Shown: positions 13,169 to 18,411, numbered from the stretch's first letter. The stretch is 64,000 bases of DNA from Alphaproteobacteria bacterium (GCA_044345375.1 JBIJBF010000003.1:18089-82088), one strand, 5' to 3'. Numbers and translations: made by a program. Notes: generated from the letters alone by a model not told the origin.

Positions 13169-14680
13169 CTAAGCCGCCTTCGCAATATCCGCGGCCAGTT
13201 TTTTGGCTTTGTCTAGGGCTTCCTCGATGGTGCCGACCATGTAAAAGGCGGCTTCGGGCAGGTCGTCGTAATCGCCGCTCAGGATGCCTTTAAAGCTGCT
13301 GATGGTGTCGTCCAGCTTCACAAAAATGCCGGGGGAGCCGGTGAACACCTCAGCCACATGGAAGGGCTGGGAGAGGAAGCGTTGGATTTTGCGGGCGCGG
13401 GCCACCGTGAGTTTGTCGGCGTCCGACAATTCGTCCATGCCCAAAATCGCGATGATGTCCTGCAAGGATTTGTAGGATTGCAGGATTTTTTGCACGTCGC
13501 GCGCCACCTGGTAATGCTCAAGCCCCACGATATTGGGGTCCAAAATGCGGGATGTGGAATCCAACGGGTCAACCGCGGGATAGATGCCCTGCTCAGCAAT
13601 CGAACGGTTCAACACGGTGGTGGCGTCCAAATGGCTAAAGCTGGTGGCGGGCGCCGGATCGGTCAAATCATCGGCCGGCACGTAAATCGCCTGAACCGAG
13701 GTGATCGAGCCCTTGTGGGTGGTGGTGATGCGTTCCTGCAACTCACCCATATCGGTGGCCAGGGTTGGCTGATAGCCCACCGCGGATGGAATGCGCCCCA
13801 ACAAGGCCGAAACCTCAGACCCCGCCTGGGTAAAACGGAAGATGTTGTCGACAAAGAACAGCACGTCTTGCCCATCCTCATCCCGGAAATGCTCAGCCAG
13901 GGTCAGGCCTGACAGGGCCACCCGTGCCCGCGCCCCGGGGGGCTCGTTCATCTGGCCATAAACCAGAGCCACCTTTGACCCCTCGTTCGAGCCGTGCTCA
14001 TCAATTTTGATCACGCCGGCGTCCTTCATTTCATGGTACAGATCGTTGCCCTCCCGCGTGCGTTCACCCACGCCGGCAAACACCGATACGCCGCCGTGCG
14101 CCTTGGCGATGTTGTTGATCAGTTCTTGAATCAGCACGGTTTTGCCAACCCCCGCGCCGCCAAACAGGCCGATCTTGCCGCCCTTGGAATAGGGGCACAG
14201 CAGGTCGATCACCTTAATGCCGGTCACCAACACCTCAGTCTCCGTCGCCTGCTCAGTAAACAGGGGGGCATCGCGGTGAATGGATGCGGTTTGCTTGGCG
14301 TTGACCGGGCCCAAATCGTCAATCGGCTCACCAATCACGTTTAAGATGCGCCCCAGGGTTTCCTTGCCCACCGGCACGCGAATCGAATCGCCGGTGGCCT
14401 GCACCTGTTGGCCGCGCACCAACCCCTCAGTCGCATCCATGGCGATGGTGCGGACGATATTGCCGCCCAAATGTTGCGCCACCTCAAGCACCAAACGGTT
14501 GCCGTTGTTGGTCAGTTCCAGCGCGCTTAGAATTGCCGGCAGTTCCCCCTCAAACTTCACATCCACCACCGGGCCAATGATTTGGGCGATGGTGCCCAGC
14601 GCAGTGGGGTTAGCGGCTGGCTGTGCAGCGGTTTTGGTTTTAGGGGCTTGTTTTGGGGCGGGCGTTTTCGCTTCGGTCAT
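13169..14680 (-). CDS. atpD: F0F1 ATP synthase beta subunit (orphan, with no adjacent atpG or atpC)
   Basis: Walker A GGAGVGKT, plus DELSDED and the catalytic beta-subunit motifs. Start set at MTEAKTP (14680), which has an AGGA ribosome-binding site; the ORF extends further upstream spuriously. Confidence 0.9.
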
Positions 14681-14812
14681 CAATTTTGTCCTAATCATCA
14701 ACAGTTGGCGCAAAAATTTCGCAATTGCTGTTGGTATAACGGGTTTTTCCCAAAAGGTTAAGTCAAAAAATTGCCTGCTGCGTGGCGCGGCGAAATCGGC
14801 TATAAAGGCTGC

Positions 14813-15592
14813 ATGAGCAAAGTTGCCTTTCATGGCCATATGGCCGATTTGTCGCCGCCATCACAGGTGCATCCTGCGGCGGCAAAGCCTGAGCTGGCGG
14901 ATGGGGCGGACAAAGATGCGGCCTTTAGCGGCCACCGCGAGCGCCTGAAACAACGGTTCTTAACCGCCGGCGCCGATGCCCTGGCGGATTATGAGCTGCT
15001 GGAGATCCTGTTGTTCAGCGGCATTCCACGTCGCGACACCAAGCCGCTGGCGAAAACCCTGCTGGCGCGCTTTGGCAATTTTGCCGGCGTGTTGTCGGCC
15101 GATGTGGCGGAGTTAAAGCGGGTGCCAGGCATGACCAACAGCGCCGCCGTCTCCCTTAAGGTGGTTCAGGCCAGTTTGGGCAAGTTTTTGTCGGCGCAAC
15201 TGCGTGGGCAGGAGGTGTTCACCAATTGGCAAAAACTGCTGGACTATTGCTACACCAAACTGGCCTATCTGGAGGTTGAGGAGTTGCATTTGTTGTTTCT
15301 GGACAGCAAAAACCAGCTGATTTGTGATGAGGTGCACCAAAGGGGCACGGTGGATCAGGCCGCCGCCTATCCGCGCGAAATCCTGAAACGCGCCCTGATT
15401 CTGGGCGCCACCGCGATTATCATCGTGCACAACCACCCCAGCGGCGACCCCGAACCCTCAACCCAAGATATCCGCCTGACCAACGAATTGGCCCTCGCCG
15501 CCCGGCTTTTGAACATTCGCCTGCATGATCATTTGGTGATTGGCAAAAAGGGCATTATTTCTTTTAAATCTTTGGGCTTGCTGCAGGAATAG
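14813..15592 (+). CDS. radC: RadC-family JAB-domain protein (UPF0758)
   Basis: HNHPSG(D) JAMM motif ([14 protein letters not shown]) and an N-terminal helix-hairpin-helix region. ATG at 14813 with an AAAGG ribosome-binding site. Confidence 0.8.
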
Positions 15593-15600
15593 GGGGGGCG

Positions 15601-16488
15601 GTGATGAACATAAAACGGCTTACGACAGCAGATGTTGGGATATTGGAACAGTATTTGGCGCCCTATCAGGCGGAATGCATGTATATTTGCAGCAATATCA
15701 AAGCTGGCGGCATGGAATATGCGGGCCAGGATTTTCAAGGCGAGTATTTCGGCTGTTTTCGCGGCAGTTCAGAAGATTTGGATGGCGTTTTGGTGCATTA
15801 TTGGAACGGCAACATCATGATGTATGCGTCTGACACCCAAGTGTTAGAGCAACTGGTTGTGTTCTTCAAAACTTACGCAACCCGTCCCGTGGTCGGGGTT
15901 CTTGGCCCTGATAGGCAAGCAGAATATGTGGTGAATAGCCTTGGTCTGCAACATGCGGCCTTCGCGAGTAATCGGAATGAAGGCTTATACGAACTGGATC
16001 TAAAGAATTTGGGGGCGATCAAGCTGCCGAATGATGTTGCTGTTGTCAGCATGCAAGATGTTTCAATGGATTTGTTGCTGCAGTGGCGTCGTGCCTATGC
16101 CATTGAGGCATTGGGGGCAGATAATGACAGCGCTCTTGAAAAACGGGTTGCCGAAGAGGTTGATCGACAGATTCGTGGGCAGGATTGTTGGGTTTTGCTG
16201 GCGGGGGGAGTTCCCGTATCCCTAAGCGGTTTTAATGCGCGCCTAGCAGAGGTGGTGCAGGTGGGACCTGTGTGGACACCGCCAGAGCACCGCAACCAAG
16301 GCTTTGCCCGGCTGTTGTTGGCTTGGGTGTTGGCTCAAGCAAAAACCAAGGGCACCAAAAAGGCGATATTGTTCACCGATACGCCAGCGGGCATCAAAGC
16401 CTATCGCGCGATAGGCTTTGAAAAGATTGGTGAGTACCGTTTGGCTCTGTTGAAAAAGCCTGTTCATTTGGCTGCCCCCGCCGCCTAA
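15601..16488 (+). CDS. GNAT-family N-acetyltransferase
   Basis: The C-terminal half carries a GNAT core (QGFARLLLAWVLAQAKTKGTKKAILFTD...AYRAIGF). The N-terminal domain is of unknown function. Confidence 0.5.
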   Translation: MMNIKRLTTADVGILEQYLAPYQAECMYICSNIKAGGMEYAGQDFQGEYFGCFRGSSEDLDGVLVHYWNGNIMMYASDTQVLEQLVVFFKTYATRPVVGVLGPDRQAEYVVNSLGLQHAAFASNRNEGLYELDLKNLGAIKLPNDVAVVSMQDVSMDLLLQWRRAYAIEALGADNDSALEKRVAEEVDRQIRGQDCWVLLAGGVPVSLSGFNARLAEVVQVGPVWTPPEHRNQGFARLLLAWVLAQAKTKGTKKAILFTDTPAGIKAYRAIGFEKIGEYRLALLKKPVHLAAPAA

Positions 16489-16536
16489 GCTTTAAGGTAG
16501 GCTTAGGCGGCGGGGGATCTCAGCTAAGAAAGGGCG

Positions 16537-18411
16537 TTAACTCCCCTGGCGACGCAGAAAGGCTGGGATTTCCAGATCCTTTGATGGATTGCCAGACGAA
16601 GGGTTGGGGGCAGCGCCCTGTGGAGAGGCGGCTGCGCCACCGTCATTGGCTCCGCCAAAACTGGGCTCAACCCCTGCTGGTTGCCCTGAACCCGCTGGAT
16701 TACGGCCTAAACGTGGGAAAGCCGCGTTGGTAACCCGCTCAAATAGACTGGGAGAGCGCCCGTGCAGATCATCGTTATAGGCTTGTTCGTCATGGTTGCC
16801 TTGGGCTGGCGCTGCCTGCTGATGGGCAGCCGATGGACGTGCACTGCTGGGCATGATGCGCGGTTCGGTTGCGGCGGGTGGGATAAAGGGATCATCCACC
16901 TGCGGCAAGCCGCGCTTAATCGGCGCAACATTGGCCGCGGCTGGTTGGGGCGCAGGGGATGGCCGTTCAGCGGCTTGTCTGCCCTCAGCATAGCCTTGGT
17001 TTTGTGAGCCTTGATTCTGCTGGCCACCAACGATCTCATCCCACCCCTCATCAGCGGCATGCGTGTAGCCAGATTGTGCGGATTCTCCACGGTTTGCCCC
17101 TTCACGATTGGTCTGGGCCACCCGTTCTGCAAAGCCGCTGACCGCACCAGTGTTGGCGGGTTGACGGGCGCCAAAGTCGGGCTGACGCGGTTCATTGGCT
17201 GGACTAGGCGCTGGCGCAGCAGTCTGCCCATGTGCTTGCTCGGGCGGAAAATCGCCGTAAGCACTGGGGCGATAGCCACGGGAAGAGGCGCCGCTGCTGG
17301 GTTGCTGAGACGCCTGCTGTTGCATTTGCGGTTGAAAATTGGGTTGAATGGGGGCGGCGGCTGCAGCTGGCCTGCGGAATGCTGGCGCAACATTGCCCGA
17401 AAAGTCGGTGTCGCCAATCGCACCTGGGCCACGATGGGTGGCCTCAATACCGGTTGCCACCACCGAAATGCGGATTTTGCCCGCCAGTTTTTCATCAAAG
17501 GTGGCCCCAAAGATGATGTTGGCGTTTGGATCCACCTCCTCCCGAATGCGGTTGGCGGCTTGGTCGGCCTCAAACAGGGTCATATCCAACGCGCCGGAAA
17601 CATGAATCAGGATGCCTTTGGCACCGCGCATCGACACATCATCCAACAGGGGGTTGGAAATCGCCGCCTCGGCCGCGCGAATGGCGCGATCAGCCCCATC
17701 GGCCTCACCCGTGCCCATCATCGCCTTGCCCATCTCGCTCATCACCGTGCGGATGTCGGCAAAGTCAAGATTGATCATGCCAGGCATCATAATCAGATCG
17801 GTAATGCCGCGCACCCCCTGGTACAGCACGTTATCGGCGGTGCGGAACGCATCCATAAAGGTGGTTTGTTCGTCGGCAATGCGAAACAGATTTTGGTTGG
17901 GAACGATGATCAGCGTGTCAACAAACTGCTGCATCTCCTCAATCCCAGCCTCAGCCAGGCGCATCCGGTGGGCGCCCTCAAAATGAAACGGCTTGGTGAC
18001 CACCCCAACGGTTAGAATGCCCTGTTCCCGTGCCGCGCGCGCAATTACGGGGGCAGCGCCGGTGCCGGTTCCGCCGCCCATCCCCGCGGTGATAAAGACC
18101 ATGTCGTAGCCCTGAATCGCCTCCAACACATCCACAATCGCCTCCTCAGCCGCCTCACGCCCAACATCAGGGCGGGCACCAGCGCCAAGACCCTTGGTGC
18201 GTTTGGTTCCCAGCTGCATCCGCAAGGGAGCCTTGGATTGCGACAGGGTTTGCGCGTCGGTGTTGGCCACCACAAAGTCCACCCCCTCAAGATTCAGGCG
18301 GATCATGTTGTCAACGGCGTTGGTACCACCGCCACCCACACCAACCACGGCGAGACGAGGTTTCAGCTCACCTTGAGCGTCAGGAATATTCAGATTCAAT
18401 GACATGGACAC
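16537..18411 (-). CDS. ftsZ: Cell division GTPase FtsZ with a long disordered C-terminal linker
   Basis: GGGTGTG tubulin signature, [13 protein letters not shown] and NTDAQ motifs. About 300 aa of P/Q/A-rich linker before the conserved C-terminal peptide ([11 protein letters not shown]), as is usual in alphaproteobacteria. No ftsA or ftsQ adjacent. Confidence 0.9.

Follow-up and report, generated by a model that had tools for sequence, protein, structure and literature searches.

Gene order around atpD and ftsZ

The present report concerns atpD and ftsZ of an uncultured alphaproteobacterium, two genes that lie away from the usual members of their operons in the 64-kb stretch of DNA analysed here in full (57% GC; referred to below as the window), and a hairpin repeat unit that occurs at some of the places where such gene clusters are interrupted in the same stretch. 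Genes were called by scanning long open reading frames (ORFs) against family profiles of the Pfam and NCBIfam type, and by a scan of the window against Rfam.

The maximal ORF of atpD (13169-14839, minus strand) corresponds to 556 amino acids (aa), and since this longest form overlaps the neighboring radC gene, the ATG at 14680 is the likely start; it yields the 503-aa form that is also the NCBI/ENA call. The product is a true F1 ATP synthase beta subunit, matching TIGR01039 with 833 bits (cut-off, 463), scoring 586 bits (below the cut-off of 752) with the model for alternate ATPases, and retaining intact Walker A and DELSDADK motifs. Upstream of atpD lies not atpG but the divergently transcribed radC (14771-15592, plus strand; NF000642, 218 bits). 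The 167 nucleotides (nt) downstream contain a repeat unit and a terminator, beyond which comes the convergent orf612 (11163-13001, plus strand, with no Pfam or NCBIfam match), and no atpC. With Pfam-labelled queries, tblastn found no match for atpH, atpA, atpG or atpC in the 64-kb window other than atpD itself.

The usual arrangement was gauged from the loci of 80 other alphaproteobacterial species, chosen as the best AtpD-similar ones among the matches listed. In every one of the 80, atpG precedes atpD at a distance of at most 915 nt. Of the 79 loci that could be tested for a downstream atpC, again among the matches listed, 75 have a detectable one. The four misses are probably failures of sensitivity, as that query likewise failed to find the atpC that Pfam identifies in L093, a related contig described below. 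The labelled atpH, atpA, atpG and atpC queries came from the loci of two top-scoring AtpD matches, the proteins P0129 and P0132, which served solely for this purpose. Both had been considered as close relatives with canonical operons and were rejected as such, being only 82% identical. The AtpD protein P0132 (L091, 4102-5811) carries an internal duplication, owing to which it outranks genuinely closer relatives in HMMER score; P0129 (L092, 3147-5432, 761 aa), which outscores the self-match of the query, probably has an internal duplication as well.

The ftsZ gene (16537-18411 as a maximal ORF, minus strand) starts with the ATG at 18405 and encodes a protein of 622 aa that matches TIGR00065 with 404 bits, is 100% identical to the database entry P0001, and has its GGGTGTG tubulin signature and C-terminal anchor-binding peptide intact. 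A GNAT acetyltransferase gene (15601-16488, plus strand; Pfam Acetyltransf_1) separates it from radC, and upstream of it lies a gene for a HEAT-repeat protein (18587-20365, minus strand; Pfam HEAT_2). FtsZ is long throughout the clade (622-661 aa), and its disordered linker (16600-17415) is 87.5% identical, with indels, between the window and a sister strain, as compared with 99.4-99.6% for the N-terminal domain and the spacer upstream of the gene.

The remaining vestige of the division and cell wall (dcw) cluster in the window is found 39 kb from ftsZ and on the other strand, where ddl (57505-58440, plus strand) and ftsQ (58410-59663, plus strand; POTRA_1 plus FtsQ_DivIB_C) are adjacent, with overlapping reading frames. 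The pair is preceded by nuoN-birA, with no mur genes, and is followed directly not by ftsA-ftsZ but by der (from 59736, plus strand). Beyond the clade, the closest homologue of FtsQ comes from an outgroup contig (L216) with the order mraY-murD-ftsW-murG-murC-murB-ddl-ftsQ-ftsA-ftsZ-lpxC.

Several other neighborhoods are split. The lpxA gene (8408-9247, plus strand) is followed by gpmI on the minus strand and not by lpxI-lpxB; carA (24168-25397, plus strand), with glyQS divergent upstream and an overlapping gene for an M23 peptidase downstream, is without carB; and glnA (47735-49243, minus strand), with pyrD (from 49327, plus strand) divergently upstream, is without glnB. Among the scanned window ORFs of at least 100 aa there was no match to ftsA, glnB, carB or lpxB. 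In these respects, as well as in its gene identities and in the absence of atpG and atpC from the flanks of atpD, the original prediction, made from the sequence of the window, was correct; it had placed ftsZ 40 kb from ddl-ftsQ, with no ftsA in view. Two splits that it did not list can be added, in that nuoJKLMN-birA (50404-57297, plus strand) begins 16 nt past pyrD with no nuoA-I, and obg (46524-47606, plus strand) has neither rplU-rpmA upstream nor proB downstream; the usual arrangement is present in L092. Gene order is not scrambled everywhere, as shown by the unbroken nine-gene block uppS-cdsA-dxr-rseP-bamA-skp-lpxD-fabZ-lpxA (24-9247, plus strand).

Independent contigs with the same order

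The splits are genuine and not errors of assembly. An ENA contig (L089) is 99.97% identical to, and collinear with, window positions 6537-28406, and two JGI contigs (L001 and L090, 99.6-99.7%) bridge 12724-14886 and 15289-19018. Contigs of a sister strain (L219-L221, 97-99% identical in the flanks of orf612) are collinear over 3106-18813, and together with L094 they give the order ftsZ-radC-atpD-orf-gpmI-lpxA...rseP, as in the window. In all, six contigs from five other samples and representing two strains have the same order over every junction between 3.1 and 28.4 kb, which includes the intervals of 13.0-13.2 and 14.7-14.8 kb for which the original prediction had advised a check of continuity; both strains are collinear across them. 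The support from second assemblies reaches 28.4 kb, and the junctions beyond that point rest on one assembly.

Breaks shared with relatives

Proteins ~60% identical to the window's FtsZ over the full length, and 92% identical in the N-terminal domain, are encoded by metagenome-assembled genomes whose labels conflict, being either Holosporaceae or Rhodospirillaceae. In the relatives L082-L088, gltX or a helicase gene is followed by an orphan ftsZ, dgkA and a cluster resembling a gene transfer agent (GTA), and ftsZ was found to be an orphan at every level of relatedness that was reached. The closest distinct AtpD (90% identical in aa, 81% in nt) is that of L093, which has the order orf161-atpD-atpC-murJ, with an atpC that overlaps the atpD stop codon and no atpG; a scan of GTDB with AtpD gave nothing above 81% identity among the matches listed. 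The break between atpG and atpD is therefore common to the window and a relative with 90% AtpD identity, and only in the two strains of the window species has atpD lost its atpC neighbor. In L095, whose FtsQ is 41% identical, the order is sdhCDAB-MFS-ddl-ftsQ and ddl does not adjoin mur genes. The neighbors of ftsZ, atpD and ddl vary from one member of the clade to another, i.e., synteny has been lost.

Since relatives carry some of the same splits, the gene order in the window appears to be an inherited, scattered one rather than the product of a fresh, repeat-driven scramble. The original prediction had allowed for relatives with the same split arrangement as an ancestral state, and this is what is seen for the orphan state of ftsZ, the atpG|atpD break and the detachment of ddl from the mur genes; it is not seen for the loss of atpC.

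Non-coding conservation near the two orphan genes points to possible promoters. A 38-nt patch with a TTGACT motif upstream of atpD (14732-14769, minus strand) is the only non-coding stretch that aligns between the window and L093 (82%), and is a candidate for a promoter or operator dedicated to atpD. Similarly, the spacer upstream of ftsZ (18406-18586, minus strand, with a sigma-70-like site at 18536-18508) is 99.4% identical to that of the sister strain, as opposed to only 87.5% for the ftsZ linker, and is a candidate ftsZ promoter region. A scan of 12.8-18.8 kb for sigma-70 sites and terminators revealed no enrichment over shuffled sequences, the only convincing signal being the intrinsic terminator of orf612 (13019-13054, plus strand), which consists of a 14-bp stem and a subsequent T run.

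Recent changes beside the orphan genes

Genes that flank atpD and ftsZ (orf612 and those for the GNAT and HEAT proteins) are compositionally foreign or variable between strains. Their GC content at third codon positions (GC3) is 0.34 for orf612, 0.43 for the HEAT gene and 0.54 for the GNAT gene, and the range of 0.34-0.54 also takes in orf231, a gene located past the HEAT gene; the core genes have values of 0.65-0.78. The GNAT gene is a strain-level insertion between radC and ftsZ, being absent from the sister contigs L094 and L219, where radC abuts ftsZ; radC adjoins atpD in L219 too. The convergent neighbor of atpD, orf612, is an ORFan with a signal peptide and 2 representatives among 1.84 billion proteins. 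Its allele in the sister strain (L219, 4962-6725) shares only 27% identity with it, as against 97-99% in the sequences on either side, and orf612 therefore encodes a hypervariable, probably surface-exposed protein. Replacement of this allele, like the GNAT insertion, counts as a recent change.

The window has its own version of the GTA-like cluster, with HK97-type head and tail genes (32022-46430, plus strand) for terminase, portal, protease, capsid and connector. In relatives (L082 and L086) the order portal-protease-capsid-x-connector-172aa-639aa occurs directly downstream of ftsZ-dgkA. In the window the connector-172aa-653aa block has shifted and now separates portal from protease, terminase and portal are separated by two small antisense ORFs (33392-34007), and the cluster as a whole is 14 kb from ftsZ and on the other strand. 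We also considered GC3 skew as a clock for recent inversions. On a plus-strand basis it averages +0.23 for plus-strand genes and +0.03 for minus-strand genes, with unremarkable values for atpD and ftsZ; since additive biases of replication and transcription account for these values, this use of GC3 skew was dropped.

The hairpin repeat unit

The repeat unit is 44-48 nt long and contains two hairpins, with the form ACCACCCCGTCAGGCTKCGCCTGCCACCCCTCC-loop-GGAGGGGAAT; one stem pair exhibits a compensatory change from C-G to T-A. Full units lie on the plus strand at 9303-9346 in the lpxA/gpmI spacer (with an orthologous copy in the sister contig L219), at 13089-13132, which is 35 nt past the atpD stop codon and where L093 has atpC, and at 47634-47680 in the obg/glnA spacer. 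An inverted pair (29361-29573), composed of a full unit on the minus strand (29361-29404) and a variant on the plus strand (29530-29573), lies in the rnpB/mgtE spacer, flanked by the 3' end of the former gene and the 5' end of the latter, and encloses 125 nt with a partial unit (29450-29479) and no ORF. Shuffled sequences yielded 0 matches to the unit. All copies in the window lie at the 3' ends of genes, for which the repeat has a bias: among window spacers of at least 60 bp it is present in 3/3 convergent, 1/9 tandem and 0/6 divergent ones.

Outside the window, no repeat unit was found in 1.43 Mb of other alphaproteobacterial loci, or in the limited sample of ~100 kb from loci of relatives that share the ftsZ and atpG|atpD breaks, and on the latter ground the shared old breaks were probably not made by the repeat. 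An exact 31-mer from the core of the unit occurs in at least 120 metagenome contigs (L096-L215) that come from many samples and range from 31 to 67% GC. This distribution is not that of a lineage-specific repetitive extragenic palindromic (REP) element, which is what the repeat had originally been taken for. The unit corresponds to no Rfam family and has no match in plasmid or phage collections, and one viral contig contains it; no paper containing the sequence was found.

In 22 of the 120 contigs the unit adjoins a gene of the DUF559 family (PF04480; Vsr-like). In 15 of these 22, the DUF559 domain is preceded at a distance of no more than 160 nt by an antisense unit, which ends 5 and 25 nt ahead of the start codon in the two cassettes that were read; in 17/19 the domain is followed within ~110 nt by a sense variant, which encodes the C-terminus of the ORF in the examples read. 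The cassette is sometimes located in frame within a type I hsdS gene; as judged by eye, the other recurrent neighbors in the 120 loci resemble type I restriction-methylase, sensor-kinase and ABC-type genes. The pair at 29361-29573 looks like a derivative of the DUF559 cassette, similar to a miniature inverted-repeat transposable element. Proteins of the DUF559 family are listed as enriched among genes flanked by inversions (PMC9881135).

Origin of the scattered order and alternatives

We consider it likely that the window is a genuine contig of a clade in which the F1-ATPase and dcw clusters were broken long ago and in which gene neighborhoods have continued to change since. Translocations and inversions in succession, along with insertions of acquired DNA, would have separated the genes of these clusters, and each orphan would be transcribed from a promoter of its own, perhaps the conserved patch for atpD and the upstream spacer for ftsZ. 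Because AtpD and FtsZ both look fully functional, their missing partners are presumably encoded elsewhere in the genome. The hairpin repeats would be later arrivals that settled at the 3' ends of genes and not the agents of the old breaks; i.e., the repeat would be a broadly distributed mobile unit that arrived after these breaks had occurred. Among all of the breaks, only the one between atpD and atpC could involve the repeat.

Some considerations weigh against this account. The data amount to 64 kb, and atpA, atpG, atpC, atpH and ftsA would lie elsewhere in the genome, if they exist at all; the atpD and ftsZ promoters are deduced from conservation. The contigs of relatives are short (in L093 only 905 nt precede atpD, and L095 stops 15 nt past ftsQ), and relatedness was judged from the identities of single proteins. 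The GC3 skew was uninformative as a test for recent inversion. Finally, the atpD|atpC break is no more than 35 nt from a repeat unit, such that the repeat might have played a role in that event.

For two of the splits, the expectation itself may be at fault. The separations of carA from carB and of glnB from glnA could well be artefacts of a view of gene order based on E. coli, with linkage perhaps not the norm for the class, although on balance we lean slightly against this explanation; in several alphaproteobacteria, carA lies apart from carB. The argument does not extend to atpD, ftsZ, ddl-ftsQ, nuo and obg, each of which has its canonical arrangement in outgroups.

The original prediction had taken the scrambling as characteristic of a genome reshaped by repeats, which would mean that the breaks arose as copies of the hairpin repeat recombined with one another or were inserted or excised. 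There is a published precedent for this in Wolbachia pipientis wMel, where scattering of the genes for the F-type ATPase has been reported and attributed to repeats (Wu et al. 2004, PMC368164). In the window, copies occur at three of the breaks, all at gene 3' ends (lpxA, atpD and obg/glnA), and the copy at 13089-13132 sits exactly at the atpC position of L093, but at least seven junctions are free of the unit (radC|atpD, GNAT|ftsZ, HEAT|ftsZ, glnA|pyrD, pyrD|nuoJ, birA|ddl and ftsQ|der). The 13.1-kb and 29.4-kb copies have opposite orientations and are 98% complementary over 49 nt, as might suit an inversion between them, but reversing such an inversion would put atpD beside rnpB and restore neither atpC nor any other canonical neighbor. 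Both strains are collinear through the copies at 9.3 and 13.1 kb, which are orthologous between them, and no copy was found in ~100 kb of loci from relatives with the same old breaks. No transposase gene or gene for a REP-associated tyrosine transposase (RAYT) was seen among the window ORFs scanned, nor were insertion sequence (IS) elements or large repeats seen in the 64 kb, in which the longest dispersed repeat measures 64 nt, aside from the internal repeats of the HEAT gene. The causal link is thus unsupported, and we regard the repeats as unlikely authors of the breaks. A related proposal, that a repeat-to-repeat inversion had moved atpC to the gene-free gap at 29.48-30.07 kb, was rejected, as the gap holds the gene for RNase P RNA (rnpB); atpC had no match there at E values up to 10.

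It would be more surprising still if the orphan atpD and ftsZ were extra copies, with canonical operons located elsewhere in the genome, of which the data cover only 64 kb. Some alphaproteobacteria do have two ftsZ genes or an alternate N-ATPase, but the AtpD of the window passes the equivalog model for true atpD and fails that for alternate ATPases, and its FtsZ is full length with linker and C-terminal peptide. The canonical place of ftsA-ftsZ after ftsQ is taken by der, and the database matches listed contain one atpD and one ftsZ type of the window species, all of which makes extra copies very improbable. That the junctions are chimeras of assembly or binning, as the metagenomic source and the short repeats at some junctions might suggest, can be practically dismissed in view of the collinear contigs from five other samples and two strains (3.1-28.4 kb).

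Comparison with known systems

The window is a further case of the known operon scattering of the Wolbachia type. It shares with wMel and the Rickettsiales an alphaproteobacterial origin, the dispersal of normally clustered genes, including those for the F-type ATPase, the presence of repeats at some of the breaks and a gene order unlike that of its relatives. It differs from wMel in GC content (57% versus ~35%), in the absence of IS elements, transposases and large repeats from its 64 kb, and in the retention of the nine-gene canonical block and nuoJ-N, along with genes for lipopolysaccharide, isoprenoid and pyrimidine synthesis. Intracellular life and genome reduction characterize wMel, whereas the organism of the window is known here from 64 kb of genes. 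A search of the literature for the order of dcw or atp genes among Rickettsiales and Holosporales yielded little beyond the wMel paper.

When set against the standard clusters, the window retains, of atpH-atpA-atpG-atpD-atpC, an orthologous atpD with intact catalytic motifs that has lost both neighbors, and of the dcw cluster as it occurs in L216, the overlapping ddl-ftsQ, with mur and ftsA gone and ftsZ 39 kb away on the other strand. Scattering of operons in alphaproteobacteria is usually discussed for obligate endosymbionts with low GC and a heavy load of repeats. Here a lineage with 57% GC exhibits scattered atp, dcw, nuo and obg neighborhoods, yet has long canonical blocks preserved and, in the window, no load of IS elements, and it might therefore be useful for examining whether scattering needs an expansion of mobile elements or merely weak selection on linkage. 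A modest practical lesson is that annotators and binning tools should not take junctions of this kind for chimeras.

The repeat resembles the REP and REPIN-RAYT systems in that short extragenic palindromes occur at gene 3' ends, singly or as inverted pairs, and bracket the gene for an enzyme. It differs in that the bracketed gene is for a DUF559 nuclease (Vsr-like, PD-(D/E)XK) and not for an IS200-like RAYT, and in that the unit is nearly invariant over contigs of 31-67% GC, REP elements being lineage-specific. A nearly invariant hairpin unit that is tied to DUF559 genes over such a GC range may matter more widely than the finding on operons. We think it rather doubtful that the window represents something more novel, either an undescribed family of DUF559 cassettes that crosses phyla, each cassette being ~0.5 kb long, with inverted 44-48 nt units as its termini and often with an in-frame position inside a type I hsdS gene, or a free-living, non-reduced lineage with scattering in the style of the Rickettsiales. 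If the former were true, the cassettes would amount to a nuclease-based counterpart of REP/RAYT, and their recent invasion of the window species would have caused at least the atpD|atpC break; if the latter, the scattering of operons would be separable from an intracellular lifestyle.

Other features of the window

Between the nine-gene block and orf612 the window has only gpmI, and the HEAT gene is followed on the plus strand by genes for a Sel1-repeat protein and a gamma-carbonic anhydrase and by orf231. After these come glyQS (22746-24107, minus strand), carA, the M23 peptidase gene (plus strand) and, on the minus strand, ybeY-phoH-mgtE, rnpB (29599-30017; bacterial class A, 268 bits with Rfam), yebC and trcR (30850-31452; TrcR family PF06242, 182 bits). 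The window ends, past der, with mutY, olsA and a gene for an ABC ATPase on the minus strand. Mechanical lists of ORFs contain spurious entries in the rnpB stretch (29714-30094 and 29764-30384). The CtrA box TTAA-N7-TTAA has 0 sites in the window; the gene for the TrcR-family cell-cycle transcription regulator lies divergently upstream of the GTA-like cluster. The glycyl-tRNA synthetase encoded at 22746-24107 is of the single-chain dimeric (GlyQS) type; the usual enzyme in most alphaproteobacteria is the two-subunit glyQ/glyS type. The HEAT gene contains internal DNA repeats of 99 and 159 nt and is a neighbor of the Sel1-repeat gene (region 18587-21458). Repeat families of the HEAT and Sel1 kinds are common in host-associated bacteria, and their presence here is a mere hint at such a lifestyle.

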